DNA of 64,000 bases. Source: Alphaproteobacteria bacterium (GTDB lineage: Bacteria > Pseudomonadota > Alphaproteobacteria > RF32 > CAG-239). The notes beneath the pieces were generated by a model, which was not told where the DNA came from, searched no databases, and saw nothing but the letters and a program-made list of their open reading frames with translations. This document shows, piece by piece, positions 17,239-57,881 of this stretch; position 1 is the first letter of the stretch; every line of letters begins with the position of its first letter. The stretch lies in the NCBI GenBank assembly GCA_017528205.1, contig JAFXPE010000004.1:15079-79078 (forward strand), given 5' to 3'. A program made the translations under genes and the position numbers.

Positions 17239-17658
17239 TTATGCTCCCCACTGCATCAGGAATTCTTTTTCGCAGGTATCGGGGTCGGTTTGGTCGGAAA
17301 TGGCGATAAATCCGTTTTGCTTATAAAACTCGACAGCGGATGCGTTCTTTTCATAAACCATCAGTTGCAGACGATGCTTTTGCTCCTTTACAAAATCCAG
17401 CAATTGCCGCCCTACTCCCAACCCTCGACAATCTTGCCGCACAAAAATGCCGGCGATAAAGTCGTCTTGTAAGCCGATAAAGCCCTTTATTTGCCCGTCT
17501 TCATAAACATAAACCGTGCTTTGCGGCAGAATTTTCTTCACAAAATCATAGTTTTTCCGCCAATATTCGGGCGCTATAAAGTCATGCGCCTGCAAATTGC
17601 CCTCGAGCCATATCTGCATTACCGTATCTAAATCGGCTATTTTGAGCGGTCGTATCAT
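17239..17658 (-). CDS. GNAT-family N-acetyltransferase
   Basis: GNAT motif A region ...GIFVRQDCRGLGVGRQLLDFV...; 139 aa. Confidence 0.75.
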   Translation of the reverse strand: MIRPLKIADLDTVMQIWLEGNLQAHDFIAPEYWRKNYDFVKKILPQSTVYVYEDGQIKGFIGLQDDFIAGIFVRQDCRGLGVGRQLLDFVKEQKHRLQLMVYEKNASAVEFYKQNGFIAISDQTDPDTCEKEFLMQWGA

Positions 17659-18098
17659 TTTGCGAGCCTCATATACAACAGCGGAAAAGGTCTGCCCTGT
17701 TCGTCCGTTGCGGTGCGTTTATAGGTTTTAAAGCCGAGATGTTCGTAAAATCCGACGGCCTGAGGATTTTGCTCATTTACAGTCACTTCGCTGATTTGAT
17801 ACTTTTGGGCGCCGTATTCCATCAGTTTGCGCCCTATTCCCTGCCCGATATACTGCGGGTCCAAAAACAACATTTCCAACCGGTGCTGTTCCACCCCCAT
17901 AAAGCCGAGATAATCGCCGTTGTTCTGCGCCACCACGAGATGCGCCACTCCTTTCAGCGCCTGCGGCACATAATTCTCAATTTCCGCGATGTCTTTGCCG
18001 GTTAAAAATGTATGCGTTTTGCTAACCGACCGCCGCCACAGAGCAGTCAGTTCCTTAATTACATCAGAGTTGCGATCTATAACATCAACAATTTCCAT
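17655..18098 (-). CDS. GNAT-family N-acetyltransferase (second, distinct paralog)
   Basis: ...LFLDPQYIGQGIGRKLMEYG... acetyl-CoA binding motif. It overlaps the downstream GNAT gene by 4 nt. Confidence 0.75.
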   Translation of the reverse strand: MEIVDVIDRNSDVIKELTALWRRSVSKTHTFLTGKDIAEIENYVPQALKGVAHLVVAQNNGDYLGFMGVEQHRLEMLFLDPQYIGQGIGRKLMEYGAQKYQISEVTVNEQNPQAVGFYEHLGFKTYKRTATDEQGRPFPLLYMRLAK

Positions 18099-18739
18099 TA
18101 CTTACATCTCTTTTTAATTTCGGCTTTGACTTTTTTCAAATCGCCGGAGGTCAAAAGCGGTATCAGTTCGTTGATTTCCTCAACGCTTTTATCCCACCAT
18201 TTGAATTTCAGTAGCAACTGTATCAATTCGTCATCAAATCTTTTGCGCACCGGTTTTGCCGGATTTCCGACCACAATCGTATATGGCTCGACATTGCTGC
18301 CGACCACACTGTTGGCACCGATTATTGCCCCATCGCCGATATGCACGCCGGGCAGAATTGTCACGTTTTGCCCTATCCACACGTCATTGCCGACAATCGT
18401 ATCGCCCTTAAGGGGTAAATCGGTCTCAGCCGGCGGCTCTTGTTCAAAATCTTCCATAATATAAAACGGAAACGTGGAAACGGCATTCATCTGATGATTG
18501 GCGCCGTTCATCACAAACTCAACCCCTGCCCCGATTTGGCAGAATTTGCCGATAATCAGCTTGTCGCCGATAAAATCATAGTGATGAGTGACGTGCTTTG
18601 CAAAATCAACATCGGCAAAATAGCTAAAATCCCCGACTATAATGTTCGGATTTTTCAGCGTCGGCTTGATATAGGTTACCGTTTTGATATTCGACACCGG
18701 AAAAATTGCATTCGGGTTAGGTTTCGTTGCCTTTGTCAT
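18098..18739 (-). CDS. Hexapeptide-repeat xenobiotic acetyltransferase (XAT family; Vat/CatB-like)
   Basis: Left-handed beta-helix hexapeptide repeats with a Vat/CatB-like N-terminus (...IKPTLKNPNIIVGDFSYFAD...GAGVEFVMNGANHQMNAVSTFPF...). The start was set to the internal ATG (MTKATKP), which overlaps the stop of the upstream kinase gene. Confidence 0.7.
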   Translation of the reverse strand: MTKATKPNPNAIFPVSNIKTVTYIKPTLKNPNIIVGDFSYFADVDFAKHVTHHYDFIGDKLIIGKFCQIGAGVEFVMNGANHQMNAVSTFPFYIMEDFEQEPPAETDLPLKGDTIVGNDVWIGQNVTILPGVHIGDGAIIGANSVVGSNVEPYTIVVGNPAKPVRKRFDDELIQLLLKFKWWDKSVEEINELIPLLTSGDLKKVKAEIKKRCK

Positions 18740-19254
18740 CAGAATTCTCCTATATCCAAGTTGTATTCTTCCTCTATCAAATGATACGGCAGTCCATGCT
18801 TTTGGCACTGTTGCAAAATGTGCTCGTTATCCTTTAGAGCCATATCTTGCGTAAAATCGCCATCATCCAGCCGCTTTTCGATAACGTTGGCATGGTTTTT
18901 GATGTCCGCAAAGCGATTTAAAATATAGTTTTGGCTCATAATCAGGCAAATGTATTTGATTTCCGCCAGATAATTTTCGCTAAAATCCTGCCGCCAAGCA
19001 AACGGAATATAACAGCCCTCAACGATTAGATTTTGCTTGTTTTCGATGGCGGTTTTAATCATTTCACGCACAATCGGCCACAAATAGTCCGTCAGCTTAT
19101 CATCATCAAGAGCGGTTAAGGCGGTCTGCTTGCTGCGGATCAGCCCCATTTTCAGCAAATCCAACGACAAGAGCGGAAAGTGATACTTTTCCAGCATTTT
19201 TTGTGCCAGCAAAGTCTTTCCCGTATGCGATGCCCCTGTGATTAAAATTATCAT
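18739..19254 (-). CDS. P-loop NTPase / small-molecule kinase-like protein
   Basis: An N-terminal Walker A (MIILITGASHTGKTLL). Its size and architecture resemble CPT/gluconate-kinase-like small kinases. It is first in a 4-gene overlapping operon with the XAT and GNAT genes. Confidence 0.5.
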   Translation of the reverse strand: MIILITGASHTGKTLLAQKMLEKYHFPLLSLDLLKMGLIRSKQTALTALDDDKLTDYLWPIVREMIKTAIENKQNLIVEGCYIPFAWRQDFSENYLAEIKYICLIMSQNYILNRFADIKNHANVIEKRLDDGDFTQDMALKDNEHILQQCQKHGLPYHLIEEEYNLDIGEF

Positions 19255-19343
19255 AAACCCTCACTTGTTAAAAGCGAGAATAAAACGTTTTTGGTTAAAA
19301 AGCAATATTTTCAAACGCTTTGTTTTTATCATGTTTTTACACC

Positions 19344-19994
19344 TCAGCGACTGACAAATGCTACGATTTCTTTTTGCAAGAGGCGGAACACATTGGCCAC
19401 CAGATATCCGTCGGCAATTGCGTGATTTAAGCGAACGCTCACCGGCATAACCAGTCTGCCGTTTTCTTCGCGATATCGTCCCCAGTTCACGATGGGCGCA
19501 AAGAACAAATAGCCGTCCGGCAACTCAATATTCAACGAATCATACGAAAGCCACGAAATGTATGAGGCATCAAACCAATTCGGATGATTTTCCATATCCA
19601 ACCCGTAATCACGCGTTTGCTTTGCCGTCTCCATATCTTTCAGCGCGCCGGCATAAAACGTGTCATAGTCCTCGTAATATTGCGTGTAAACCGGCGTACA
19701 GGTTTCCGTATCTTCATGAAATACATATTGCGTGGGGTTGACCATATCATAGCAGATAAGCTCGCCCGTCTGCCAAAGATAGCCCATGCGATAATCTTCA
19801 CGCGAATTCATTACTTTGGCAAGGATATACAGAAAATTCAAATAGAATTTCGAACTCGTCCGCTTTGACCAGGCTGCAAGCTCGGTCACATCTATTCTGG
19901 CAGTCATAGAAGTGGAGCATTTGCAGTCTTCCGAAAAGTGACGAAACACACCCTTGCGATAATACGTTTCTTTATCAATGACCTTGTAGTTCAT
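19344..19994 (-). CDS. cat: Chloramphenicol O-acetyltransferase, classic (type A) CAT fold
   Basis: Colinear similarity to CAT_I along the whole protein, including the catalytic-His region ...SVRLNHAIADGYLV... (compare MAIQVHHAVCDGFHV) and ...LFFAPIVNWGRY...; 216 aa. Confidence 0.8.
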   Translation of the reverse strand: MNYKVIDKETYYRKGVFRHFSEDCKCSTSMTARIDVTELAAWSKRTSSKFYLNFLYILAKVMNSREDYRMGYLWQTGELICYDMVNPTQYVFHEDTETCTPVYTQYYEDYDTFYAGALKDMETAKQTRDYGLDMENHPNWFDASYISWLSYDSLNIELPDGYLFFAPIVNWGRYREENGRLVMPVSVRLNHAIADGYLVANVFRLLQKEIVAFVSR

Positions 19995-31505: not shown

Positions 31506-31647
31506 ATACGCGGGTAATTTTTGCGCATTGTGACGGCACTTCTTCTGCCGTTATTCTCGGCTTGACCGAGTGTCTTTAGAAAACCGGCCATTCTTTCCGC
31601 CGGAATGAACAGCGCCGTAAGTGTTGCAACAACTTTAATGTTAACAG

Positions 31648-31665
31648 TTGTCAGATTGTGACATT
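31648..31665. promoter_or_regulatory. Candidate operator: dyad TGTCA-N5-TGACA within an 18-mer that recurs at 33378-33395
   Basis: ttgtcagattgtgacatt lies about 85 nt upstream of the cupin gene. The same 18-mer with one mismatch (g for a) occurs about 80 nt upstream (divergent) of the minus-strand gene starting at 33301. Confidence 0.35.
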
Positions 31666-31748
31666 GATATTCTAAATAATCACAACCGAGATATTTCTGT
31701 TTTACTTTTGGATAAAAATCCCCTACACTATGGCAGAAAAGTTATTTT

Positions 31749-32207: not shown

Positions 32208-32909
32208 ATGAAGACAATTGTTGCCATCGGCGGCGGAGAAACCGGTCGTGTCATAAAATCAGAAGACGGTACGGAATATCAAACGCCGCTGGAAACTACA
32301 CCTATCGACAAATTGATTATTCGGTTGGCTAACAAGCCGCACCCAAAGGTTTTGTTTATTGGTACGGCAACGCACGATAAACCCGCGTATCCGGAGTTTA
32401 TACGCCGGCAATATGTTGGAAATTTGGGCTGTTCCTCTCTTGAAACTTTGTGTATAGAAACCGAACACCTGTCTTTTGACGAGATAAGAAACAAGGTGCT
32501 TGCCGCTGATATAATTTATGTCGGCGGGGGCGATACGACGCATATGCTGAAAGTGTGGAAAGAGCAGCAACTCGACGTGATTTTGCGCGAGGCTTACGAA
32601 AAAGGTGTTATTTTGGCGGGCATATCCGCCGGAGCCATTTGTTGGTTTGAATGGTATGATAATATGGATGACATCGACACCATTGATGATTTGGCGTTGG
32701 TGCCGGGGCTCGGTTTTGTAAAGGAATTCGGCGTTCCGCACTATAATTGGCTCAGCAAAGAAGAGCGAGACAAAATAAATTTGCTGCTGAAGGCAAAGAA
32801 TATTTCCGGCATTGCCATAGACGATTGCGCGGCCGTTGTTTTTAGGGATAATAACATCGAGTTTATCTCTGATGCCGATTATGGCTCAACCGTCAGATAC
32901 ATTCCGTAA
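32208..32909 (+). CDS. Peptidase S51 (dipeptidase E / cyanophycinase-like) family protein
   Basis: MKTIVAIGGGE...VLFIGTATHD...IIYVGGGDTTHMLKVWKE...ILAGISAGAICWFE... (the Ser-nucleophile GxSAG context). The start was set at ATG 32208, with a gaggaa RBS. Confidence 0.65.
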   Translation: MKTIVAIGGGETGRVIKSEDGTEYQTPLETTPIDKLIIRLANKPHPKVLFIGTATHDKPAYPEFIRRQYVGNLGCSSLETLCIETEHLSFDEIRNKVLAADIIYVGGGDTTHMLKVWKEQQLDVILREAYEKGVILAGISAGAICWFEWYDNMDDIDTIDDLALVPGLGFVKEFGVPHYNWLSKEERDKINLLLKAKNISGIAIDDCAAVVFRDNNIEFISDADYGSTVRYIP

Positions 32910-32917
32910 TTTCCATC

Positions 32918-33301
32918 TTATATTCCAAGTCCGCGCAAGCAAACCAAAACGAAGGCCGCGATTAACGCCACAACGGCCAAAACGCAAGCCATAATTGCCA
33001 TCCATTTGAAGATATTTTCAGATATTTTATCAAGTAGCGGCGTTTCCAAAAAATCTTTGGGCAAAGCGCCTTTTTCCTGAAGCAAAATTATAAAAATCAG
33101 CAAGGCCATACCAATCAAGCCACCGCGTTCTTCCACGCCAATTCCGAGTGCCGCAGTGATGCAATATCCGCATACGGCAAAGGCGAATATAAGACAAACG
33201 AGGATAAATTTGCTGATTATCCAAGCTTTAATTTCCTGCTCGGTTATGTCTGAAGGCTTGTTTTTCATAATTTGCCTCACGGTTAACATCTCTTTTATCA
33301 A
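32918..33301 (-). CDS. Small membrane protein (127 aa)
   Basis: Three predicted TM helices; no family. Confidence 0.4.
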   Translation of the reverse strand: MIKEMLTVRQIMKNKPSDITEQEIKAWIISKFILVCLIFAFAVCGYCITAALGIGVEERGGLIGMALLIFIILLQEKGALPKDFLETPLLDKISENIFKWMAIMACVLAVVALIAAFVLVCLRGLGI

Positions 33302-33388
33302 AATATGGCATTTTTTCCGTTATCTTGCTCTATTATACACCATATTCGCGGGTGCTCAAGCAAAATCGGATTTAGAATTGTCAGATTG

Positions 33389-33436
33389 TGGCATTTATTT
33401 CGAAATATTATAAACCCGCCGTGTTTCCGTGGCGGT
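33389..33436. repeat. 48-bp direct repeat, copy 1 (tggcatttatttcgaaatattataaacccgccgtgtttccgtggcggt), contains a ccgcc/ggcgg hairpin
   Basis: Identical to 34964-35011 except for one position (t versus g), by direct comparison. Confidence 0.85.
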
Positions 33437-33552
33437 CTAAAGTAAAAGCCGAGCGTTCAACCCGGCTTGTATTGTTACAAAACTATATCTTTCTAAATAA
33501 GTCTTTGCAAATCATCTAAAACATCAGCTAATTTCATTAAAGAAAAGAATGT

Positions 33553-34830
33553 TTATTCCCCATCTACAGGATGAAAAATTCCATCCTCGACGTATCCATA
33601 TTTTCCATTTTCATAATGATAGAAGCGATTGTCCATATTTTCTTTATGAATAATTACAGGTTTTTGAGAAACAACGACTGAATCATCCGGCACATCAATA
33701 GCTACAGCACATCCTGCACCAATTCTGACATTATTTCCTATTCTTATCTTTCCTATAATTGTAGCACCCGCTCCTATAAGTACATTATCTCCTATTTCAG
33801 GCGATCCATTTTTAGAAGAACCTTTTGTCGTATTTGAACCAATAGTAACATTTTGATAAATAACGCAACGCTTTCCTATTTTGGCCCCTCCTGATACGAA
33901 AATACCATGAAATCCATGTGGAAGCGTTGGAATTGTTGCCCATTTTGACCCACTACCAATCCAACATCCTTTACTATTACACAATTCATTATAAACTCGT
34001 TCATAACGAATTTTTTCATCTCCTGACTTTTTCATAACAAGATCTTTTAATACCCATAAATTATTATGAACTTCTTTTAAAATATCATTGTCATTCACTT
34101 GTTTAGTATAAATTGATCCACTTTTATTTTCATTTGGTAGCATACTGTTTAATAATAATTCGAATTTATTTAGTCTATTTTCTAATGCATCACAATATTG
34201 GGTGAGAAGCTGATTTTGCTTCAATAAATTATCTGCGGTAATTCTATCAACTATCTTATCAATATTTGATATTATTTCATCACATGAGTAAATCGGCTGA
34301 GATAAGATAAATTCTTTCAACTCTGTCTTATCATAGCTATACGGACATATTTTTAAATTAAGTACTATTTTATCTCCTTCCTTAACAGATTTTTCATATT
34401 TAAAAGGTTCATCATGCCATGCAGTAACGGGCTTTGTTAATATTTCTTCACCATCTATTTTAAGAGATGTATAGCATATTTTCAGAGGAAATCTTTTGCC
34501 ATTTATACGTTTATCTTTTCCTCTAAAATCTATTTTAAGTCTACCTGCCTGAGAAATGCCCATAACCAATTCTCGTTCGCATGTATCTCCCTCTATTAAA
34601 ACCCCTTGCCCACGTTCATTTTTGAACCACTCCGGATAAGATATTTTAAGATTTTCTCCTTCAACAGTTATTGTTCCATTTTGTGCGTCATAAATTTTTG
34701 CATCTATCCTAAAAGATAACAACTCCTTTTGTATTTTGGGAAGTATATTATTAATAACTGATGTTATATCACTCATTCTGCTCTCCATTGTTGGAATAAC
34801 ATTCTCCATATTATTAGTATAATGGCACAA
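33553..34830 (-). CDS. Two-domain protein: uncharacterised ~250-aa N-terminal domain fused to a serine-acetyltransferase-like hexapeptide (LbH) acyltransferase domain
   Basis: The C-terminus ...GIFVSGGAKIGKRCVIYQNVTIGSN...GSPEIGDNVLIGAGATIIGKIRIGNNVRIGAGCAV... is colinear with the CysE/SAT C-terminal domain. The N-terminal part has no recognisable motif. The gene looks more AT-rich than its flanks. Confidence 0.55.
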   Translation of the reverse strand: MCHYTNNMENVIPTMESRMSDITSVINNILPKIQKELLSFRIDAKIYDAQNGTITVEGENLKISYPEWFKNERGQGVLIEGDTCERELVMGISQAGRLKIDFRGKDKRINGKRFPLKICYTSLKIDGEEILTKPVTAWHDEPFKYEKSVKEGDKIVLNLKICPYSYDKTELKEFILSQPIYSCDEIISNIDKIVDRITADNLLKQNQLLTQYCDALENRLNKFELLLNSMLPNENKSGSIYTKQVNDNDILKEVHNNLWVLKDLVMKKSGDEKIRYERVYNELCNSKGCWIGSGSKWATIPTLPHGFHGIFVSGGAKIGKRCVIYQNVTIGSNTTKGSSKNGSPEIGDNVLIGAGATIIGKIRIGNNVRIGAGCAVAIDVPDDSVVVSQKPVIIHKENMDNRFYHYENGKYGYVEDGIFHPVDGE

Positions 34831-34963
34831 ATGCTAATATTTCAATAAAATTTAAATAATGTTCATTGAAATATTATACAAGATATAGAATACTCTTCTT
34901 CAACCTTATTATTCCTTTCATCTCACTTTATACAAGAACTAATTTTACACTTATGACAAATAT

Positions 34964-35011
34964 TGGCATTTATTTCGAAATATTATAAACCCGCCGGGTT
35001 TCCGTGGCGGT
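34964..35011. repeat. 48-bp direct repeat, copy 2
   Basis: tggcatttatttcgaaatattataaacccgccgggtttccgtggcggt; see copy 1. Confidence 0.85.
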
Positions 35012-35030
35012 TTGACGGATGAATTACAAA

Positions 35031-35573
35031 TTAAAGTAATTTGATTATCTTTGCTTCAACTTCTTTCATATCCGCAGTAGGTTCAAAGCGTTCTATCACA
35101 ACTCCATCGCGGTTTATCAAAAACTTGGTAAAATTCCATTTGATATCCGGCTTTTTATCCCAATCCGGATCTGCCTTGCCAAGCATATCCGCCAAAAGTG
35201 CGGCTAATTTATGTTCGCCAAATCCCGCAAAACCTTTCTCAGATTTCAAAAAGGTATATAACGGCAGCTCATTTGCACCATTCACATCAGATTTTTTCAT
35301 TTGCGGAAATTTTGTGTTATAGTGTAATTGGCAAAACTCGTGCACTTCAGCGTCAGTTCCCGGTGTTTGGTGTCCGAATTGATTGCAAGGAATATCTATT
35401 ATTTCCAATCCATTATCGTGATATTTTTCATAAAGAGTTTCTATTGCCTCGTATTGCGGGGTAAAACCACAACCGGTTGCCGTATTCACAATCAGCAACA
35501 CTTTGCCTTTTAAGTCAACCAGATTCAGTTTTTCTCCGTTTGGTTTTGGTACATTGTAGTCATAAATGCTCAT
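35031..35573 (-). CDS. gpx: Glutathione peroxidase
   Basis: ...VNTATGCGFTPQYEAIETLYEKY...IPCNQFGHQTPG... matches the GPx active-site and FPCNQF motifs. Confidence 0.85.
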   Translation of the reverse strand: MSIYDYNVPKPNGEKLNLVDLKGKVLLIVNTATGCGFTPQYEAIETLYEKYHDNGLEIIDIPCNQFGHQTPGTDAEVHEFCQLHYNTKFPQMKKSDVNGANELPLYTFLKSEKGFAGFGEHKLAALLADMLGKADPDWDKKPDIKWNFTKFLINRDGVVIERFEPTADMKEVEAKIIKLL

Positions 35574-35589
35574 TTGATTTCTCCTTTAT

Positions 35590-36216
35590 TTATTTTCCGT
35601 CCGGAAAGCTGGTAAATATTATTGGTTCATATTCCGGTCGGGTAATACCGTTTTTACGACCAAGTTCAATGCATTTTAACAGCCAAGCCATATTGTGCCC
35701 CAGCGTGCGCATAGTCTGTAAGCCTTCTTTATCTTTTTTGACATCATCAGAGGTAAAACCGTGCACCATATTCCAATACTGCGAACCGACAACCTGCATT
35801 TTGCTGATTGTAAAATATTTGTTCAAGCGATCAAAAGATGCGCTTGCCCCGCCCCTACGGCACGAAACAACAGCGGCGGCCAATTTTCCGGCCATTTTGG
35901 GTGCATAAGTGAAGAATAAGCGGTCGCAGAATGAACAAATCTGACCTGAAGGCCCGGCGTAATACACCGGTGAACCGAGGATAATACCGTCAAACTCATC
36001 AAGTTTGGCACCGATTTCGTTTACACCATCATCAAACACACATTTGCCGTTTTCTCTGCACTTTTGACAAGCGATACAACCCGCAATCGGCTTTGTTCCT
36101 ATATGATAAATTTCCGTTTCAATTCCGTTTTTATTCAAAGTGTTTGCAACCTCGCTAAGGGCAGTATAAGTACACCCTTCTTTATGAGGTGAACCGTTAA
36201 TAAGTAATACTTTCAT
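35590..36216 (-). CDS. NADPH-dependent FMN reductase / iron-sulfur flavoprotein-like (flavodoxin fold)
   Basis: MKVLLINGSPHKEGCTYTAL... and a Cys cluster (CIACQKCRENGKC), typical of the Isf/NADPH-FMN reductase family. Confidence 0.65.
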   Translation of the reverse strand: MKVLLINGSPHKEGCTYTALSEVANTLNKNGIETEIYHIGTKPIAGCIACQKCRENGKCVFDDGVNEIGAKLDEFDGIILGSPVYYAGPSGQICSFCDRLFFTYAPKMAGKLAAAVVSCRRGGASASFDRLNKYFTISKMQVVGSQYWNMVHGFTSDDVKKDKEGLQTMRTLGHNMAWLLKCIELGRKNGITRPEYEPIIFTSFPDGK

Positions 36217-36358
36217 TGATTTTCTCCTTATTGCTTTAGATATGGTATCAGCTGGGGGGATTTTAACGCAACTGTTTTTTAGAGTTATTAAGAATATAAA
36301 TCAAGGCCGCCATAAAAGCTGTGGCGGGTTTGGAGTAAGCAGAAACCGAATTAAACGG

Positions 36359-36559
36359 TTAGCATCTGATTTTACCTTCTTCATTGATGCGACAATCTTC
36401 AACAATGTATTCGACGGCCTTTCTGAACTCGCGGTCTGACCTTAACATTTTATGATCCATTCCCGCAACTTCGGCCATTGCCGGCAACACCGTGTTGTTT
36501 ACGATAATTCCGCAGATTAAGCCCAATACAAATATAGCCGCGACATAAACTTTTTTCAT
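36359..36559 (-). CDS. Small secreted protein (66 aa)
   Basis: A signal-peptide-like N-terminus; weak support. Confidence 0.3.
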   Translation of the reverse strand: MKKVYVAAIFVLGLICGIIVNNTVLPAMAEVAGMDHKMLRSDREFRKAVEYIVEDCRINEEGKIRC

Positions 36560-36670
36560 TATTTTTTCTCCTTTTTCATCTTGGTTATTCCGTTTTTTTG
36601 AGCATAAAACAACATTCTGCTTATATCAAGTTAAATCTAATCTTTGTGCGCCAAAGTTTGGCTCAAAGCC

Positions 36671-37327
36671 TCAGCCGGCCAAAACGCAGCCGAATAAAAT
36701 GGAGAAAAAGTGCATAATCGTGCCGCATAAAACAAATGCGTGCCACACGGCGTGGGTGAATCTTTTGCTTTTCCACATATAAAAAGGTATGCCCAAGGTA
36801 TAAAACAGGCCGCCCAAAATCAAAAACACCAAGCCGATTGTGTTCAGGTTGGCAATTAACGCCTTAGAGGCAAACACAATCAGCCAGCCCATAATTAAAT
36901 ACAGCAAAATAGACCACAGTTTGGTGCCGTTGGCCGGAGTAACCAGCTTTAAAACCGTGCCGAGAATGGTTAAGCCCCAAATAATTCCAAAAATCGTCCA
37001 ACCGATGACACCGCGCAAATTAACCAGCAAAAACGGCGTGTATGTGCCAGCTATCAAATAATAAATGGCGATATGGTCAAACTTTTTCATAATTTTTTTG
37101 GCCCGCTGATTTGTCAGGGCGTGATAAACGGTCGAGGTGGAATACAAAATAATCATCGACGAAGCGAAAATGGCGCTGGAAACAATTTTCCACGGATCTC
37201 CGGTTATTGAGGCAAAAGCCGTTAAAACCGCCAAAGCGGCAATTCCCAAAATAATCCCCAAACCGTGGCAGGAACAAGAGGCTATTTCTTCAGGGATTGT
37301 GTATGGTCGTTGTTCTTTTTGTTGCAT
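36671..37327 (-). CDS. Hemolysin III / PAQR-family membrane protein
   Basis: Seven TM segments with a conserved His-rich C-terminus (...HAVWHAFVLCGTIMHFF...). Confidence 0.7.
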   Translation of the reverse strand: MQQKEQRPYTIPEEIASCSCHGLGIILGIAALAVLTAFASITGDPWKIVSSAIFASSMIILYSTSTVYHALTNQRAKKIMKKFDHIAIYYLIAGTYTPFLLVNLRGVIGWTIFGIIWGLTILGTVLKLVTPANGTKLWSILLYLIMGWLIVFASKALIANLNTIGLVFLILGGLFYTLGIPFYMWKSKRFTHAVWHAFVLCGTIMHFFSILFGCVLAG

Positions 37328-37376
37328 TTTCTGTGCTCCGTAGATTTTATTCAGGGGTAGTTTACAGCATGGTGTT

Positions 37377-38459
37377 TTAAATTACAACAAAAAACCGCCG
37401 CAAAAGTTTTTGATAGGTTTCCAAATCATCAATGCTGATGTGTTCGTTTTCCGAATGAGCCTGCTCTATGCTTCCGCAACCGCACAAATAAACGTTTTGC
37501 CCGATTTCGGCCAAATATCCCGCCTCTGATGTGTAAGAAAGCTTTGTCGGCTTTATTTGCAGTTTGGCGCAAAAATCACTTATCTGCTTTTTATCATTGG
37601 CCTGATAACCCAAAAACTCGGCAGTTTTAATTGTTTCAATGCGCGCGGCCGGATATTGTTTGATGACGGCCGCAGTTTTTTGCTGATATTCTCGAACAAT
37701 TTTTTTTGCGCTTTCTTCACTTGTGTAGCGGAAACCCCATTCAATTTCCGCCTTGTCCGGAATTACGGCAATGTTGCCGCCGCCCGATAACGAGCCGACA
37801 TTTAAGTATATTTCATTCCCCAGAGCTTTTTGCGCAATCTTTTCCAGTTCTTGCACAATTTTCGCGGCAATAAACAAGGCGTTTATCCCCTTATTGGGCA
37901 CAGAAGAATGTGCGGATATACCATTAATAATCGTTTTATAGCTTTTTATCCCTGTGCTTTGAATCCCCAACTGATTGGCAGTCGGTTCGCCTAGAATTGT
38001 GAGCTGCGGCCGAATGTTTTGTTTTTGCAAAAAGGCGCACACGTCTTTAATGCCTTGCATTTCGCTTTCTTCGTCGCAGGTAAAACACAAAATTATCGGC
38101 ATTTTCAATGTATTAAAGTATGATATTAAATTTAAATAGCAAGCTATAGCACCTTTCATATCGGTTGTGCCGCGGCCATAGATTTTCCCGTCGGCAACAG
38201 TCGGCTTAAATTGCCCTGCTTTGCCGCCAACAACATCCAGATGACCGCAGAGCATAACTCCCGAGCGAATATCTTTCAACTCGGCAACGTTAAGTCCTAT
38301 AAGCAAATTATCCTTGCCGTTTGTCGGAATACATTGGATTATGCATTGCGGGCTTTGATGCCGAATGTAGTCTTTGATATATTGCACACATTGCAGATGA
38401 TTGGCAGCATTTCCGTCGGTTTTTAGGGAAATCAGGTCGTTTAATATCTTATGCAACAT
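37377..38459 (-). CDS. M20-family metallopeptidase/deacylase (ArgE/DapE-like)
   Basis: ...LCGHLDVV...GRGTTDMKG...E..E motif order of M20. The start was set to the internal ATG (MLHKILND), with an aaggagag RBS, rather than the longer ORF. Confidence 0.7.
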   Translation of the reverse strand: MLHKILNDLISLKTDGNAANHLQCVQYIKDYIRHQSPQCIIQCIPTNGKDNLLIGLNVAELKDIRSGVMLCGHLDVVGGKAGQFKPTVADGKIYGRGTTDMKGAIACYLNLISYFNTLKMPIILCFTCDEESEMQGIKDVCAFLQKQNIRPQLTILGEPTANQLGIQSTGIKSYKTIINGISAHSSVPNKGINALFIAAKIVQELEKIAQKALGNEIYLNVGSLSGGGNIAVIPDKAEIEWGFRYTSEESAKKIVREYQQKTAAVIKQYPAARIETIKTAEFLGYQANDKKQISDFCAKLQIKPTKLSYTSEAGYLAEIGQNVYLCGCGSIEQAHSENEHISIDDLETYQKLLRRFFVVI

Positions 38460-38767
38460 TTTTCTCTCCTTAAAGTTAAAATCAAAACCAACCTTTAAAG
38501 AGAGCAAAAAATAAACCCATCGATAACGACAGGCTCTGAAATTCGCCCATCGTTCAAGCTTTAGCACCGTGCATTTTGTCGGTTGCTGTGTGGTCAAAGG
38601 GCTTGTCCCTCGCACACTCTTTATAGGTTGCTTGCAATTTACAACAGAATTTTTCTTTTTTCAAGCAAAATCGGCCGAATTGTTGTCTGATTACGGCATC
38701 ACTTCATGATATTATAAAACCGCCGCAAAAGTTACGGCGGTTGTTATAAATTCTGCTCGTTTTCCGC

Positions 38768-39238
38768 TTATAATATCACGCAGATGCCAAACAACAGCAA
38801 GAAACCGACCAACATCATAATCGGCGTATCCATGGAATGAGGTGCGGAAGCCTCAGCCACGGTCATTATCGGCGGAAACAGTATCACCGCGGTCCAAAAT
38901 TCTTGCGGATTTTCAAATTGTCCCCGATATAAAATCAAAAATAAGAGCGCAAACAAATAAACACAGGCGCTTCCGGCATAAGAACGCACATATCTGTTTT
39001 TCAAATTCCACGAAGGAACAACATATTTTTTCTTACCCCAATACGTTCCTACCGGCTCAGCCAATCCGTCACCTATGGCAACGGTAAAAACAACAACAGA
39101 CGCCAACTGCGGCAAATTCAAATATGTTTCAAAAACCTGCTTAAATATCGTAATCAGCAACAACCCCGACAGCATATTGCCCAAAACAATCATTTTAACG
39201 TCGGCAAACGTAGCGACCTCGGCCGAAAAATTATTCAA
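38768..39238 (-). CDS. Polytopic membrane protein (possibly a CTP-transferase/dolichol-kinase-like fold); the 5' end is unclear
   Basis: Hydrophobic throughout, with an ...AIGDGLAEPVG... motif. The N-terminus may be truncated. Confidence 0.35.
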   Translation of the reverse strand: MNNFSAEVATFADVKMIVLGNMLSGLLLITIFKQVFETYLNLPQLASVVVFTVAIGDGLAEPVGTYWGKKKYVVPSWNLKNRYVRSYAGSACVYLFALLFLILYRGQFENPQEFWTAVILFPPIMTVAEASAPHSMDTPIMMLVGFLLLFGICVIL

Positions 39239-39372
39239 ACCGAGGCCGATGCCTTTATTTTCAGTAATATATCCGACGGTAAATTTTTAAGCTTCAGTTG
39301 CGTCAACTTGTATTCAAATTTAATCTCTTTGCATTAAAGTGAAACGTTATATTAAAGCTTAGGTGATTTTGC

Positions 39373-40560
39373 TTAATCAGCGTTTACCATTTTAATTGCT
39401 GATTTCGGGCAAAGATGCGAACACAGCGAGCAACCGACGCAAGCCTTCGGATTAAGCACTATTCCGGAGGCGGTCAAGCTCAATGCACTGTGTTCGGATT
39501 CAGCGCAAATCGTTGCACATTTGCCGCATTTGCCGCACAATTCGCGGTCAATCTGCGGATATACCTGTTTTTGCTTGTTTAAACTTCTGTGTGCCGAAAG
39601 CTTGTCAATCGCCTTATTTTTCAAATCTGCCGGGCTGTTAAAGCCTTTGCTACTCAAATAGTTGAACAGGCCTTTTTTCATTGTTTCGATAACACCGTAA
39701 CCGTTAATCATAACTTCGGTGCAAACCTGCACCACGTCGGCGCCCACACACATATATTCCGCCGCATCGCGCCAAGAGGAAATGCCGCCGATGCCCAAAA
39801 TCGGCAACTTGCTGTTTTGGCGAAGTTGAGCCACACAACGCAGACCTATCGGCTTTATGGCAATGCCGGAATATCCGCCGAAAGTGGATTGGCCGTTAAC
39901 ATTCGGTTGTGGCTCAAATGTATCCAAATCAACCCCCATTAAAGATTGCACCGTGTTAATGGCAGCAAGACCGTCGGCACCGGCCATTTCCACCGCCTTA
40001 GCTATTTCCGCAATATTGCTGACATTCGGCGAAAGTTTTACAAACACCGGTTTTTCCGCCGCTTCCTTTACCCATTCGGTTATCATGGCCGAAGCCTCGG
40101 CGCTGGTGCCGATGGCCATACCGATATCCTTTTCCGGCATACCGTGCGGACAGGAAAAATTAAGCTCAAAGGCGTCAATTGCGGCATTGTTTAAGGCTTT
40201 TACCAATTTTTGCCATTCTTCTTTGAAAACCGGCGCCATAATGCTGGCAATTTGCACTTTTGTCGGATGTTTTTTGCGCAAAAAAGCAATGCCGTCAATC
40301 CATTGTTGCACGGTAAGATGGCTCAGAAGTTCAATATTTTCAAAACCGCAAACTCTGTTGCCCATTTTCCAAGAAGCATAACGCGGCGATGCATCAATCA
40401 TTTCCAAATCGTCCGGCGTAATGGTTTTGAGCACCGCACCGCCCCAACCGAGCGAAAAGGCTTTATCCAAGCTCTCGATTTTGGCCGTCGGCGGCGCCGA
40501 AGCCAAAATAAACGGATTTTCAAAATCAATACCCAAAACGTTGGTGGCTAATGTCGTCAT
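39373..40560 (-). CDS. Dihydroorotate-dehydrogenase-family flavoprotein with a C-terminal 2x[4Fe-4S] ferredoxin domain (PreA-like dihydropyrimidine dehydrogenase subunit)
   Basis: An N-terminal DHOD class-1 TIM-barrel (...GIDFENPFILASAPP...) and a C-terminal CGKCGKCATICAE...CVGCSLCSHLCP. Confidence 0.65.
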   Translation of the reverse strand: MTTLATNVLGIDFENPFILASAPPTAKIESLDKAFSLGWGGAVLKTITPDDLEMIDASPRYASWKMGNRVCGFENIELLSHLTVQQWIDGIAFLRKKHPTKVQIASIMAPVFKEEWQKLVKALNNAAIDAFELNFSCPHGMPEKDIGMAIGTSAEASAMITEWVKEAAEKPVFVKLSPNVSNIAEIAKAVEMAGADGLAAINTVQSLMGVDLDTFEPQPNVNGQSTFGGYSGIAIKPIGLRCVAQLRQNSKLPILGIGGISSWRDAAEYMCVGADVVQVCTEVMINGYGVIETMKKGLFNYLSSKGFNSPADLKNKAIDKLSAHRSLNKQKQVYPQIDRELCGKCGKCATICAESEHSALSLTASGIVLNPKACVGCSLCSHLCPKSAIKMVNAD

Positions 40561-48976: not shown

Positions 48977-50440
48977 TTATTCCTTTCTATTTTCCAATGA
49001 TTGTCCTTTTGCCCCGTATTCCTTAACTTTTTTAGTTGCGTCTTTAAGCGCTCCCAAGCAGGCATTTCCGGCCACACAGCCCCCCGGACAGCACATAATT
49101 TCTAACAAATTTCCGGCCGGACATTGGCCGGTTTTGGCATACATTTTCAAATCGCGTATTGACGTTTTATCTAAGCCGTTGACAATAACCGGTTTGATGG
49201 CATCTTTTTCGCCGCGCCATGCCGCCTGAACGGATTTTGCCACACCGCCGGAAACGGCAAATTCCCTTGCCTCGGTTGAGCTTTGATATGCAAATTCTTT
49301 ATCTGCGCAAGTTTCAATTTCAATACCCAAAGCAATCAACACCGCACCCAATTCTTCAAAGTTCAACAAATAGTTAACGTTCGGATTATCCAAAACTTCG
49401 CGCCGCTTGGCAAAACACGGGCTGATAAACACCGTAACGGCATCCGGATGCTCTTTTTTAACGATTTCGGCCGTATAATAAAGCGGTGTGTGGGCGTCGG
49501 AAACATATGGCTGTATTTCCGGCAGGTGTTTTTTCACCAATTCGTTGTACGCGGCACAACACGATGTAGTCATAAACGGAGCCCCGTTTTTCAGACGCTC
49601 TTGAAAATCTTTGGCCTCGGTAGTGGCGGTTACATCGGCGCCTTGGGCAACTTCATATACCTGACTGAAGCCGATTTTGAGCAACGCATCTTTAATTTGC
49701 CCCGCCGAACATGGCAAATGACCGACCAACGCCGGCGCAAACATAGCAATTACTTCTTTGCCGCTTTTGATTTGTTTCAATATATCAATCACCTGTGATT
49801 TGGCGTGAACAGCGCCAAACGGACAAGCCGAAACGCATTTGCCGCAAGAGATACATTTTTCGGTATCTATACGGGCAAAACCGCGTTCATCTTTAACAAT
49901 TGCACCCACCGGACAGGCATTTTCGCACGGAACCACGGTCTTTACGATTGCACCGTACGGGCAGGAGCTCATACACATACCGCATTTTTTGCACTTATCC
50001 GGATCAATAGATGCTTTACCGTTAACGTGCGAAATGGCACCGAAACGACAAGTGTTCATACACGGACGCGCTACGCATCCTTGACATAAATCGGTAACAT
50101 AAATTCTGGCAGCCTGACAGCTGTGGCAAGCACTTTCTACCACGGTCAACGGATTTGAATCCGGCTTTTGGCGTTGCAACGCTCTTTGCGCATATTCGGA
50201 TAGCAAAGTCTTTTCATCATCATCTTCAATGGAAAAACCCAATCCGGCCAAAGTTCTGGCACGCAATATACCACGTTCTTTATAAACGCAACAGCGAAAC
50301 GGGACATCAGAATATTTCGGACGCATATCATACGGGATAAGCCGCGTATTTTCAGCAAAATTATCAGATAAAAAAGCGCGAATTAAGCGCACTAAAACTT
50401 CTCGTTTTAATCTTTTGGTTTCTAATTCAGAACTAATCAT
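48977..50440 (-). CDS. [FeFe]-hydrogenase-like protein with ferredoxin-type clusters and non-canonical H-cluster motifs (HfsD/sensory-type)
   Basis: Two 4Fe-4S motifs (CKKCGMCMSSCP, CISCGKCVSACP) and H-cluster-like motifs: TSCCAAY (canonical TSCCPxW), SPCFAKRRE (PCxxKxxE) and EIMCCPGGCVAG (MACPGGC). Confidence 0.6.
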   Translation of the reverse strand: MISSELETKRLKREVLVRLIRAFLSDNFAENTRLIPYDMRPKYSDVPFRCCVYKERGILRARTLAGLGFSIEDDDEKTLLSEYAQRALQRQKPDSNPLTVVESACHSCQAARIYVTDLCQGCVARPCMNTCRFGAISHVNGKASIDPDKCKKCGMCMSSCPYGAIVKTVVPCENACPVGAIVKDERGFARIDTEKCISCGKCVSACPFGAVHAKSQVIDILKQIKSGKEVIAMFAPALVGHLPCSAGQIKDALLKIGFSQVYEVAQGADVTATTEAKDFQERLKNGAPFMTTSCCAAYNELVKKHLPEIQPYVSDAHTPLYYTAEIVKKEHPDAVTVFISPCFAKRREVLDNPNVNYLLNFEELGAVLIALGIEIETCADKEFAYQSSTEAREFAVSGGVAKSVQAAWRGEKDAIKPVIVNGLDKTSIRDLKMYAKTGQCPAGNLLEIMCCPGGCVAGNACLGALKDATKKVKEYGAKGQSLENRKE

Positions 50441-50693
50441 TTTTTAACCTTTTCTCTATTGCGGCATAAACTTTTTCAATATCGGCCGCGGAAATTATTT
50501 CATCTTCGACCAGAACGTATGGAGCCTTGGAAAAAGAATCCGCGTGATTACAAGCCCCTAAGCATCTTGCCGACACAATTTCAATTCTGGCCGCATATCT
50601 TTGTGTTAACGCGGTCAAAACCGGCTTAATGGTTCCGCCGCCCATCACAAAACAGGTCGTTCCCTCGCATATCTTTACGGTTACTTTTTCCAT
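50433..50693 (-). CDS. Thioredoxin-like [2Fe-2S] ferredoxin (small HydC/NuoE-like protein)
   Basis: Four-Cys pattern C-x4-C...C-x3-C (...KICEGTTCFVMGG...ARCLGACNHAD...). Confidence 0.5.
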   Translation of the reverse strand: MEKVTVKICEGTTCFVMGGGTIKPVLTALTQRYAARIEIVSARCLGACNHADSFSKAPYVLVEDEIISAADIEKVYAAIEKRLKND

Positions 50694-50702
50694 TTGCCTC
50701 TC

Positions 50703-51863
50703 CTATATATAACTGATTGTTACTTGTTTAAAATATTTATCTTCTAATAATTTTTTCATTTTTTTTATTACCGTGCGACGAACTTCAATTTCTACCGGTA
50801 AGGCTGGATCATAATGCGCCTGATTCAGCATCGCCCCGACCATAAATTCGATAATATCTGACTCCAACAAGAACTTTACCAACAATCCGGCGGCATCTTT
50901 GTGTTGCAGTTCTTCGCGTTCCAAATACTCCGCCGCTCGTGTAAGCGTCAAAATACCTTCGGTTACCAAATCAACACCGTCCATTGCCGCAACCGGCGGC
51001 AAATCTCCGCATTCTGTTTGCGGAATATTAACAATTTCGCGCCTTAACTCGCGAGAAATCATATTTGCAGTTGTCCCACCGCATATAGCTTTTTTACCGC
51101 CGAAAAATCCAAAAGACAAGCAATATTCGCGATCTTTGGATTTATTGTATGGCGGACCGGTAAAAATTAGGGATTTTCGCGGATTTCTGAAGTAGAGAAC
51201 GCTACACGATATATCATCGCCGGCGTGTTGCTCCGGTTCAACCGATAGTGCTTTCTCAATTACCCATTTGGCTAATTCCGAGCTGGATTCTTTGGGATAT
51301 AATTCCAAGTGTGATTTTAAAGCGGTCAGCAAACCCCGGCGCTGAAAACCGAGAGGATATTCCCTTGTACCGATACCGGCCTGAGTTACTCCGTCAGAAC
51401 AAAAAATAATACGGTCACCGACTTCTGCCTGAAAACGATATAAGCGTAAATGTCGATCCGGATATTGCGGTGAGGTAAATTCTTTGTATGCAAGCGGCAA
51501 TTCTTCATTTTTACGCATTAAAACAAACGCCGGATTACCTTCTTCTACCACCCAGACACTGCCATCATTACGGCAATCCACAGCAGAAAAAGTTGCATAG
51601 CTGATTTTGCGAATTTGGCAAATCGGCAGAGAATCCATTATGATTTGTGCCGCCTTACGAATTGAAATATCTTCCTCAATAAACCGCGCCAACATAGTTG
51701 CCGTCATGCATGACAAAATATTGGCTTTAATACCGCTTCCCAAACCGTCTGACAACACGGCAATAAGACGTTTCTGATTGTCAGAACGCTTAGATATGAA
51801 ATAATCACCAAAGGCATTCTGTCCGAACTTTTTGATTTGTGCGCAATCTATATCAATGAACAT
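50703..51863 (-). CDS. PP2C-type (SpoIIE/RsbU-like) serine phosphatase with a C-terminal uncharacterised domain
   Basis: ...FGDYFISKRS...LIAVLSDGLGSGIKANILS... and ...IIFCSDGVTQAG..., the PP2C metal-binding motifs. Confidence 0.7.
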   Translation of the reverse strand: MFIDIDCAQIKKFGQNAFGDYFISKRSDNQKRLIAVLSDGLGSGIKANILSCMTATMLARFIEEDISIRKAAQIIMDSLPICQIRKISYATFSAVDCRNDGSVWVVEEGNPAFVLMRKNEELPLAYKEFTSPQYPDRHLRLYRFQAEVGDRIIFCSDGVTQAGIGTREYPLGFQRRGLLTALKSHLELYPKESSSELAKWVIEKALSVEPEQHAGDDISCSVLYFRNPRKSLIFTGPPYNKSKDREYCLSFGFFGGKKAICGGTTANMISRELRREIVNIPQTECGDLPPVAAMDGVDLVTEGILTLTRAAEYLEREELQHKDAAGLLVKFLLESDIIEFMVGAMLNQAHYDPALPVEIEVRRTVIKKMKKLLEDKYFKQVTISYI

Positions 51864-53576: not shown

Positions 53577-53803
53577 AATTCCTCCAGTATTTTCAATAAT
53601 TCTTCCGGAGTCAGCTTTGAATATTTCTTATTATCAATAAAAACATTCGGACCATCCTGACACGCATCGCTACAACGACATCCGATAAGTTCCAAAGAAT
53701 GCTCTTTTCGATTTTTTTGAATGTAGTCATCTATTAAAGCCAATGTCTTATCGTTGCCGCGCACATAACAAGAACTTCCCAAACATACTTTTATAACAGC
53801 CAT
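53573..53803 (-). CDS. Small thioredoxin-like [2Fe-2S] ferredoxin (HfsA-like)
   Basis: CLGSSCYVRG...CRCSDACQDGP four-Cys pattern; 76 aa. It overlaps the hydS-like start by 4 nt. Confidence 0.5.
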   Translation of the reverse strand: MAVIKVCLGSSCYVRGNDKTLALIDDYIQKNRKEHSLELIGCRCSDACQDGPNVFIDNKKYSKLTPEELLKILEEL

Positions 53804-53951
53804 TTACTCATCCTTTTTTGATTTTTTTATAGCATATTTAACCTGTTCCGTGTTGTCAAGAGCAAATCGCCTGATATCATTTTCAGTAAAAATACCCCCT
53901 TAAACCAGAATTGTGTACTGATTTAAGGGGGTATTTTATCTTGATACTCTT

Positions 53952-55721: not shown

Positions 55722-55723
55722 GA

Positions 55724-57403: not shown

Positions 57404-57404
57404 C

Positions 57405-57881
57405 TTACGCCTCCTTAAACACTTCGCGCCATTCGTTTAAAATTTCCGGCACCTGTTCCGGTGTCATACGACCGTAAGTTTTGCCGTTTACAACGCAAAC
57501 CGGAGCCAATCCGCAACAACCTACGCAACGCACGCATTGCAGATGGAAGAGTCCGTCAGGAGTACTCTCGCCCTCTTTGATATGCAGTTCCGATTTAAAT
57601 TTTTCCAAAACCTTGTCGTTACCTTTCAAAAAGCAAGCAGTACCCGTGCATACGGAAATTACGGCCTTACCCGGTGCAACCAGCTTAAAAAAGTTATAAA
57701 ACGTCAGCACTTCGTAAATGCGTGCCAATGGTATTCCCATGGTTTGAGCCAAATCCACGGCATCTTTCCAATCAACATAGCCCTTAACGCCTTGTATTTC
57801 ATGTAAAGCCATAATCAGAGAACCGCGTTTCTTGCGCCATTTCTCACCGACACGGCAACCTAAGCAAGGTTCATTATCCAT
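57405..57881 (-). CDS. hydC: [2Fe-2S] subunit HydC (NuoE/24-kDa-like)
   Basis: ...CTGTACFLKGNDKVLEKF... and ...CVRCVGCCGLAPV..., the NuoE thioredoxin-like ferredoxin motifs. Confidence 0.85.
   Translation of the reverse strand: MDNEPCLGCRVGEKWRKKRGSLIMALHEIQGVKGYVDWKDAVDLAQTMGIPLARIYEVLTFYNFFKLVAPGKAVISVCTGTACFLKGNDKVLEKFKSELHIKEGESTPDGLFHLQCVRCVGCCGLAPVCVVNGKTYGRMTPEQVPEILNEWREVFKEA

Follow-up and report, generated by a model that had tools for sequence, protein, structure and literature searches.

A strain-specific two-module islet at a resident terminator spacer of an uncultured gut/rumen alphaproteobacterium, with a putative glycan O-acetyltransferase gene as cargo

We show that the strain represented by a 64-kb stretch of alphaproteobacterial DNA (lineage RF32; CAG-239; contig JAFXPE010000004.1, positions 15,079 to 79,078; hereafter the window) differs from its sister strains by a two-module islet, cleanly inserted into the short spacer between a 66-amino-acid (aa) open reading frame (ORF), orf66, and a gene for a 116-aa membrane protein, mem116. 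Module A holds the genes of an FMN reductase and a glutathione peroxidase (gpx), and module B holds a single AT-rich gene, the cargo, flanked by two near-identical 48-nucleotide (nt) repeats, which we call R. All genes around the inserted unit lie on the minus strand. Read in gene direction, the locus comprises in turn orf66, a hybrid hairpin, module A, R copy 2, module B, R copy 1, and the promoter and gene of the membrane protein (Table 1). A first-pass annotation of the sequence had noticed the repeats and read them as the borders of a small cassette, left by site-specific insertion or by recombination between repetitive extragenic palindromic (REP)-like elements. On balance we think it probable that R is a resident spacer to which two foreign modules were added at one and the same point, module B through Campbell-type recombination at R.

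The strain-level comparison was made on the genomic contexts of two variants from the 90% cluster of the 116-aa membrane protein. They represent two sister lineages, found on about nine contigs from several independent metagenomes, one with 94-96% DNA identity to the window (L091-L095) and one with 97-98.5% (L099-L101). In these strains the order is M20 peptidase, HlyIII, orf66, a single R and mem116, and the hexapeptide gene that forms the cargo, the FMN reductase and the glutathione peroxidase are all absent. The sister sequence passes from window position 36321 straight to 33435, with an overlap of 7 nt (CCGCCAC). When the two flanks of the window are joined accordingly (..36321 plus 33428..), they show 0 differences from L099 in the 150 nt spanning the junction, and they regain a perfect 9-bp stem, AAACCCGCC/GGCGGGUUU. 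The first-pass annotation had pictured the empty site as one repeat lacking only the cargo gene. The single R is indeed present in the sisters, but the FMN reductase and gpx genes are missing too, and the difference amounts to 2,885 bp. Because the nearer lineage, L099, and the more distant L091 are both empty, one gain in the window lineage is more parsimonious than two identical losses, and we infer that the direction of change was a gain.

Our repeat search bore out the two 48-bp sequences with one mismatch, at 33389-33436 and 34964-35011, and placed these near-identical cores within a longer pair of 58 nt at 91% identity (33379-33436 vs 34954-35011). Each of two sub-patterns, of 32 and 24 nt, is present just twice in the window when up to 3 mismatches are allowed, with 0 expected from 100 shuffles. 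Both copies contain the CCGCC-N10-GGCGG hairpin noted earlier, and all four CCGCC-N10-11-GGCGG hairpins of the 64 kb lie within 5.4 kb of one another. The single core mismatch, T versus G at 33422/34997 on the plus strand, falls in the hairpin loop, where the ancestral base is retained in copy 1 and a variant stands in copy 2 (GGAAACCC in place of GGAAACAC). The variant makes an alternative hairpin, AAACCC-GGC-GGGTTT, which is followed by a T-rich tail behind gpx. At -9.3 and -10.4 kcal/mol, the stems of the two copies are weaker than the ancestral stem. From CCGCCAC on, copy 1 is identical to the one R that the sister strains have; it runs on into ancestral downstream sequence, with the cargo terminator on one side and the promoter-like site of mem116 on the other. 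The gpx stop codon lies 20 nt before the start of copy 2.

Three junctions coincide at one position in R, on or inside CCGCCAC: those between ancestral DNA and module A, between module A and copy 2, and between module B and copy 1. Both repeat junctions recur at 100% identity in an independent assembly (L002, corresponding to window 34375-35777, and L088, corresponding to window 33715-31835), and the same arrangement is found on three further long contigs and implied by the locus tags of an NCBI metagenome-assembled genome (MAG). Because the junctions recur in this way, the arrangement is not an assembly artefact. Logan unitigs L001 and L084 do break at the repeat, ending exactly at the edge of the shared sequence. 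Logan assemblies use a k-mer of 31, and such breaks are expected because the shared exact stretches reach this short length.

In the sister strains, the single R opens with the perfect 9-bp stem (-15 kcal/mol, z -3.6), continues with a U-rich tail directly behind orf66, and reaches the promoter-like site of mem116. An older paralogue, R4, is present in all strain lineages (window 38670-38750, L091 3410-3490, L099 4411-4491). Because the sister-strain R is a terminator spacer and R4 is found in every lineage, we conclude that R is the resident terminator-to-promoter spacer between orf66 and mem116 and that it had already been duplicated once, as R4, in the common ancestor. About 120 nt of R4 are homologous to R, as far as 38661 and with the -35 box included; the alignment score is 62, compared with a shuffle maximum of 43. 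The homology comprises the hairpin, TTTATAATAT, AATC.GACAA and the sequence up to CCGATTTTGCTTGA, the -35 region of the next promoter. Since R4 occurs in all lineages, two R-family elements in direct orientation also enclose the M20-HlyIII-orf66 operon. The earlier notion of a cassette acquisition therefore survives for the inserted, foreign and recombinase-less unit but not for the repeat, which was not borne by a cassette: it is the recipient's terminator spacer, with the older R4 5 kb away.

A covariance model of R and R4 gave no other true members when run on the window and 38 loci, and none in 23 loci of related species. The R core has 0 matches in 185,579 genomes and the JGI metagenomes (searched as a 22-mer) and 0 in IMG/VR (searched as a 31-mer), and Rfam has no family for R. 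Because the core is without matches in genome, metagenome and viral contigs, we reject the reading of R as a widespread element. A REP element or bacterial interspersed mosaic element (BIME) is likewise rejected, and with it the suggested recombination between REP-like elements: there are two near-identical copies and one old paralogue within 5.4 kb, the sisters have one copy, and the 48-mer, which a high-copy REP would repeat many times, stands twice in the 64 kb searched, while its core is absent from the public collections. As a separate observation, the covariance model gave a match of 22 bits at 31635-31709 (minus strand), an intergenic segment beyond the cupin gene in which the hairpin is absent. 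Within it, 31648-31665 shares 17/18 nt (AATG.CACAATCTGACAA) and also TTTAGAATAT with the tail of R copy 1, where R4 has AATCAGACAA; this likeness may reflect a shared regulatory motif. Directly downstream of R4, and upstream of the M20 peptidase-HlyIII-orf66 operon, lies a SAM riboswitch (RF00162, 38514-38629, minus strand; 65 bits against a gathering score of 44.4), the only Rfam match above the gathering score in 32500-39500.

Exactly one gene had been placed between the repeats, and a single ORF of at least 50 aa does lie there (33553-34830, minus strand). It had been described as a 425-aa fusion with a serine acetyltransferase (SAT) domain. The frame is open back to 34830, but the likely start is the ATG at 34776, with the ribosome-binding site (RBS) GGAGA, which yields 407 aa. 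This 407-aa form alone is recorded in public assemblies (P0001); exact-protein look-ups of the 425-aa (TTG start), 418-aa (first ATG) and 411-aa forms returned no record. Among the 51 putative genes of the window against which ranks and z-scores were calculated, the cargo has both the lowest GC (0.318, z -2.9) and the lowest GC at third codon positions (GC3 0.195, z -3.5), in keeping with the earlier remark on its AT-richness. The deviation in codon usage that had been noted by eye is slighter, with a synonymous log-likelihood that is mildly low (z -1.0). The whole unit between the repeats (33437-34963) has a GC of 0.308, versus 0.421 for the window. Judged from its signals, module B is predicted to be transcribed as a self-contained unit: a promoter-like site, an RBS, the ORF and a strong terminator all lie within it. 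Both arms of the 20-nt inverted repeat that overlaps the promoter-like site contain the 9-mer TAATATTTC, which also stands in both R copies, beside a 12-nt perfect palindrome, TATTTCGAAATA. The 9-mer occurs once within the cargo ORF (34438) and elsewhere in the 64 kb once only (10223).

The cargo is also isolated by homology. Its 90% cluster contains itself alone, and no variant at 90% identity or more was found in 15 billion sequences, whereas the flanking genes, the membrane-protein gene among them, do have variants from other strains. The closest homologues, at 72% and 62% identity, stand in unrelated contexts on AT-rich contigs, and the homology of loci L085 and L086 to the cargo locus ends at the ORF. 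A recent, strain-specific and compositionally foreign acquisition of the cargo gene is thus supported.

Matches of the cargo protein to known families are confined to residues ~285-380 and are to left-handed beta-helix O-acetyltransferases of the CysE/EpsC/WcaB type, far below the family cut-offs (TIGR01172, 69 bits against a cut-off of 210.65; EpsC, 75 against 150). Pfam finds Hexapep only, and protein-family alignment scans of viral and metagenome contigs gave matches to the generic C-terminal ~175 residues only. The AlphaFold model has a confident N-terminal beta-sandwich (residues ~20-147, predicted local distance difference test (pLDDT) ~90) and a long helix (172-212), with the beta-helix poorly modelled in the monomer; a Foldseek comparison with the PDB gave nothing significant. 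Of the earlier reading as a SAT-domain fusion, therefore, the beta-helix part stands and the N-terminal part does not. A serine acetyltransferase of cysteine synthesis (CysE) was rejected for the same reasons: the family cut-off is missed, and the N-terminal region is a beta-sandwich instead of the helical domain of serine acetyltransferases.

The N-terminal beta-sandwich (33994-34776, minus strand; residues ~15-180) had no Pfam or NCBIfam match in the scans run. Used as a query, this region retrieved 683 cluster representatives at E <= 1e-3, often with 2-3 tandem copies of the domain within large proteins. The proteins that carry it also carry glycosyltransferase (GT) domains (GT2, GT8, GT61, GT-D) or PMT_2, TupA-like ATP-grasp or CotH domains; the neighbouring gene in L085 encodes the same N-terminal domain (37% identity over 152 residues) fused to a GT-D glycosyltransferase. 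The beta-sandwich, of ~160 residues, is a candidate new domain family of glycan-biosynthesis enzymes. Because of the beta-helix acetyltransferase match and the glycosyltransferase company of its N-terminal domain, the cargo protein is best read as a putative O-acetyltransferase of glycans (surface polysaccharide or glycoconjugate) with an accessory beta-sandwich module.

Module A has a GC of 0.40, ordinary for the genome, and its DNA is 81-83% identical to loci L096-L098, in which a 222-aa flavodoxin-like gene stands between the FMN reductase and gpx. Its leading DNA is homologous to the region upstream of the FMN reductase in L096 and L097, where, as in module A, the terminator of the upstream gene precedes the FMN reductase region. 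We propose a related rumen alphaproteobacterium as the source of module A. Apart from the gpx of the window, one alone reaches 90% identity (P0031), and it belongs to an unrelated redox locus. The gap between the FMN reductase and gpx is 16 nt in the window (35573-35590), against the flavodoxin-like gene in L096 (1545-2310), and the window junction looks as if two similar RBS regions had been fused; a deletion between short stretches of likeness may be the cause. In a gpx-based scan of species-representative genomes, the nearest were uncultured rumen Alphaproteobacteria MAGs with glutathione peroxidases 75-86% identical; a cupin gene directly follows gpx in one locus (L025). Synteny at the locus is not kept between species, and for this reason the scan yielded no empty site.

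In the process we envisage, foreign DNA would have entered R at a single point in or at CCGCCAC, which belongs to the 5' arm of its terminator hairpin. Module B may have arrived as a circular intermediate with an R-like segment, so that one reciprocal exchange with the chromosomal R would produce direct repeats of the attL/attR kind; the circle junction of an excised module B would then read CTTTTACTTTAGA-R-AATATTTGTCAT. A single crossover in the first ~13 nt of R would leave the ancestral loop base in copy 1 and the variant in copy 2, as observed. Module A would have entered the same spot through the 7-11 nt of identity between two terminator stems. The first-pass annotation had listed an attL/attR-like duplication as one possible origin, and the coinciding breakpoints and the pattern of the loop single-nucleotide polymorphism (SNP) agree with it, although R bears no att signature of a known family.

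As had been stated earlier, no integrase or transposase is found within the 64-kb window, nor is any other recombinase, as judged from the annotation of +/-8 kb around the cargo gene and from the ORFs of at least 100 aa in the rest. The joining enzyme would therefore be host general recombination, acting on ~48 nt of identity and on a 7-nt microhomology at the outer junction, or a recombinase encoded elsewhere. The circular intermediate, the enzyme, and how many events took place in what order are likewise inferred, no intermediate strain having been found that would separate one event from two. Host recombination or a one-off illegitimate event is favoured over a dedicated system, because R lacks attC and dif architecture and the inserts lack terminal inverted repeats, and because there are no further R sites in the data searched and a nearby single-gene insertion or deletion (indel) in L091 is bracketed by an unrelated 20-nt repeat.

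Several points weigh against this account. No donor with an R-like site beside the cargo gene is known, the homology of L085 and L086 ending at the ORF, and no strain with module A but not B, or the reverse, was found among those compared. At 48 nt, R is close to the minimum that RecA-dependent recombination requires. Repeated use of one breakpoint would be expected of a site-specific or structure-directed process more than of general recombination, and the outer 7-nt repeat is equally expected from a microhomology deletion. The inspection for recombinases and R copies covers 64 kb of the genome.

We compared the locus with the classes of mobile DNA that such an arrangement recalls. The attC core motifs RYYYAAC/GTTRRRY are absent on both strands of R copy 1, copy 2 and R4, and R folds into a stem of 5-9 bp with a 10-nt loop, the remaining ~30 nt being unpaired, with no long imperfect hairpin of the attC kind. 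An integron cassette or a cluster of attC sites lacking integron-integrases (CALIN) is rejected on the absence of these motifs, the absence of a tyrosine recombinase domain in the scanned window ORFs, and the cargo's own promoter-like site and terminator. The best dif/pdif arm matches in R are 11-12/22 against sequences taken as the consensus of E. coli dif and Acinetobacter pdif, and random 91-nt pieces of the window average 11.6-11.8. A Xer dif module or an integrative mobile element exploiting Xer (IMEX) is thus rejected: the arm match is at chance level, and the 28-bp 11-6-11 XerC/XerD architecture is missing. Neither the whole insert nor module A or module B ends in terminal inverted repeats (13-14/40 matches), and an insertion sequence (IS), a miniature inverted-repeat transposable element (MITE) or a transposon is rejected on this ground and for lack of a transposase domain. 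A 7-nt duplication does bound the whole insert, but element ends are absent.

Other likenesses are closer. As in site-specific elements, the sisters have a single R, the window has two R copies around module B, and the empty site can be precisely reconstructed. In cis-mobilizable elements (CIMEs) and tandem accretion, known from ICESt1 and ICESt3, the att sites derive from a known integrative and conjugative element (ICE) or integrase and usually occupy the 3' end of a tRNA gene or a conserved gene. The islet resembles them in having cargo between direct repeats that copy a chromosomal target, no internal integrase, and an adjoining second module that shares the middle repeat. It differs in having no known cognate element or integrase, in using a terminator spacer as its site, and in an outer left junction that shares 7-11 nt only. 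Phage morons are autonomous promoter-gene-terminator units of deviant composition inserted between genes. Module B is built in this manner, with a GC 11 points below its surroundings, but it lacks a prophage context, and in viral contigs the full-length cargo architecture was not found, only matches to the generic beta-helix part. Like integron cassettes and CALINs, the locus has single-gene units parted by similar hairpin repeats, in one orientation and with no adjacent integrase; unlike cassettes, which are usually promoterless, the cargo has its own promoter-like site and terminator, and R is the locus's resident terminator.

Dif modules are flanked by sites in inverse orientation, unlike the direct R copies, and the islet lies in an alphaproteobacterial chromosome. 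The Xer-dependent dif modules of Acinetobacter plasmids are nevertheless comparable in being small recombinase-less modules of one or a few genes bounded by short sites; their sites are of 28 bp, they form arrays, and a host recombinase is thought to act on them in trans (PMC6449649, PMC13141974). The minimal mobile elements (MMEs) of Neisseria (Saunders & Snyder 2002, as cited in PMC1797815) are small strain-specific gene sets between conserved flanking genes that lack mobility genes of their own. The islet shares with them one to three accessory genes, conserved neighbours, a syntenic site that is either empty or occupied, and no recombinase, and presumably also a spread by homologous recombination of the flanks. 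Occupied and empty states do exist between the conserved orf66 and mem116, but the likeness is partial because no alternative cargo was seen at this site in the strains compared. MMEs are defined by flanking genes and alternative cargo and not by bracketing direct repeats, and the 48-58-nt duplication of the target spacer and the base-exact breakpoints in a hairpin point to a distinct primary insertion event for the islet. By analogy, the case behaves like a small genomic islet, similar to a minimal mobile element, with att-type bracketing reminiscent of CIMEs.

It is possible, though clearly less probable than addition by host recombination, that R is the attachment site of a dedicated recombinase encoded elsewhere or on a helper element, and that the locus is an array grown by accretion of recombinase-less modules, comparable to integron cassettes and CALINs, CIMEs or dif modules. 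Three coinciding breakpoints at one point of the hairpin arm with a shared 7-nt core (CCGCCAC), the tandem arrangement of two modules parted by R, and the older duplication of R as R4, which brackets the neighbouring operon in the same orientation, keep this explanation alive. The crowding of the window's hairpins of this type into 5.4 kb is also consistent with it, as is the passage from a near-identical 48-nt core to weakly similar flanks, which is often seen in attP/attB pairs. The 64 kb, however, hold no recombinase; R has a small hairpin without attC core motifs and matches dif/pdif arms no better than random sequence (11-12/22 vs 11.6-11.8). Moreover, the left junction shares only 7-11 nt with R, the rest being the donor's own terminator and promoter region, no R members occur in the other fetched loci or public collections, and the unrelated 20-nt repeat at the nearby L091 indel points to a sequence-independent process.

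A bolder version, which we consider unlikely, would make R-type spacers the attachment sites of an undescribed cassette-like system of gut/rumen Alphaproteobacteria with its recombinase in trans; this class is reportedly one that lacks integrons, according to an IntegronFinder survey. In such a system, self-expressed modules with one or a few genes each would pile up in succession at the 5' arm of a terminator hairpin. On this view, the R4-operon-R arrangement would be an old event, the FMN reductase-gpx pair and the acetyltransferase unit would be recent ones, and the 73-aa ORF of L091, bracketed by the 20-nt repeat, might be a related event.

We also regard as improbable that the window arrangement is ancestral and that the sisters lost 2.9 kb when a microhomology-mediated deletion joined the two CCGCCAC heptamers. 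Direct repeats at the boundaries, here of 7 nt, are what slipped or illegitimate deletion classically leaves, and the region is prone to indels: L099 has a deletion of 192 nt and L091 an indel of 326 nt. Such a deletion would nonetheless have to produce the identical junction in two separate lineages, of which the nearer, L099, groups with the window, and its product would be a terminator with a perfect 9-bp stem, stronger than any hairpin of the occupied state. The lack of cargo variants where the flanking genes have them also speaks against it. We disfavour deletion because of parsimony, because of the perfect terminator it must create, and because it leaves the 48-nt repeat and the cargo's foreign composition unexplained.

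Distinctly improbable is a duplicative insertion, by fill-in of widely staggered breaks at the hairpin or by template switching at a stalled fork, in which both copies would derive from the recipient's own R as a long target-site duplication. The copies differ at 1/48 nt, similar to the divergence between strains, the breakpoints lie in structure-forming sequence, and the L091 indel is bracketed by a duplication as well, of 20 nt and different sequence. Against this, some similarity persists outside the 48-nt core on either side (58 nt in all at 91%, and CAAAC upstream of copy 2), and the variant loop base sits in the upstream copy. We know of no bacterial process that routinely yields target duplications of ~50 nt, the duplication of CRISPR repeats apart. 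Finally, that the repeat is a dispersed element of the REP or MITE type, or the arrangement a metagenome mis-assembly across it, is effectively refuted: a short hairpin-containing intergenic sequence at which unitigs break might suggest as much, but its copies are internal to the locus, three public collections hold no match, the breaks are expected from the length of the shared stretch, and both junctions stand in the independent assembly and the three further contigs.

Table 1. Features of the islet and its surroundings (window coordinates; coordinates of minus-strand parts may run downwards)
Feature	Coordinates	Strand	Remarks
Whole strain-specific insertion, 2,885 bp	33436..36320	-	Bounded by the CCGCCAC direct repeat at 36327-36321 and 33435-33429
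Upstream flanking gene, 66-aa ORF (orf66)	36359..36559	-	Its terminator in sister strains is R
Hybrid hairpin, left junction	36307..36327	-	5' arm AAACCCGCCAC from ancestral R; loop, 3' arm TGGCGG and tail from incoming DNA
Module A	35012..36320	-	FMN reductase 35590-36216, glutathione peroxidase 35031-35573, own upstream region
R copy 2	34954..35011, core 34964-35011	-	Hairpin 35010-34991
Cargo promoter-like site TTGAAA-18-TATACT	34845..34816 (feature 34816..34876)	-	Overlapped by 20-nt inverted repeat 34835-34854 / 34857-34876
Cargo gene, 407 aa	33553..34776	-	N-terminal beta-sandwich, long helix, C-terminal left-handed beta-helix O-acetyltransferase domain (CysE/EpsC/WcaB type), as predicted
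Cargo intrinsic terminator	33446..33468	-	9-bp stem, -12.7 kcal/mol, z -4.2, then UUUUACUU
R copy 1	33379..33436, core 33389-33436	-	Hairpin 33435-33416
Downstream flanking gene, lineage-specific 116-aa membrane protein (mem116)	32918..33268	-	Promoter-like TTGAGC-16-TATAAT at 33359..33332
R4, older paralogue of R	38670..38750	-	Hairpin 38740-38720, -18.4 kcal/mol

The islet is an example, resolved to single bases, of the gain of accessory traits by an uncultured gut/rumen alphaproteobacterium with no visible mobility gene; the traits are a gene pair for oxidative stress and a probable O-acetyltransferase of surface glycans. As a single case, this is ordinary strain-level variation in gene content. 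If the pattern of one point in a hairpin recurs across genomes, terminator hairpins could be preferred entry points for small gene modules. As a practical by-product, the N-terminal beta-sandwich of the cargo could be described as a new family.

Further variation lies close by. The L091 indel, 500 nt from the islet, is a 326-nt segment (L091 6355-6681, corresponding to window ~32909-32918) with a 73-aa ORF without Pfam match, between the membrane-protein gene and an S51 peptidase gene. It is bracketed by the 20-nt direct repeat GGAAAGC[T/C]ACGTTGAAATTA; the window and L099 are without the segment and keep only GAAATTA. On the other side of R4, 192 nt (38919-39110) inside a 156-aa membrane ORF (38768-39238) are absent in L099 and L100. 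Farther off, 17239-19994 (minus strand) holds four acetyltransferase genes in ~2.8 kb, two GNAT, one hexapeptide-repeat and one of the chloramphenicol-acetyltransferase (CAT) family (E 9e-45), and 1739-14356 (minus strand) is a giant ORF of 4,205 aa, whose L091 counterpart has 4,223 aa and no Pfam hit. On the opposite flank, 48977-57881 (minus strand) carries three genes resembling [FeFe]-hydrogenase large subunits, one with a PAS domain, along with genes for a NuoF-like protein, a thioredoxin-like [2Fe-2S] ferredoxin and a SpoIIE-type phosphatase; the predicted functions of this cluster indicate a probable fermentative, hydrogen-producing lifestyle of this alphaproteobacterium.

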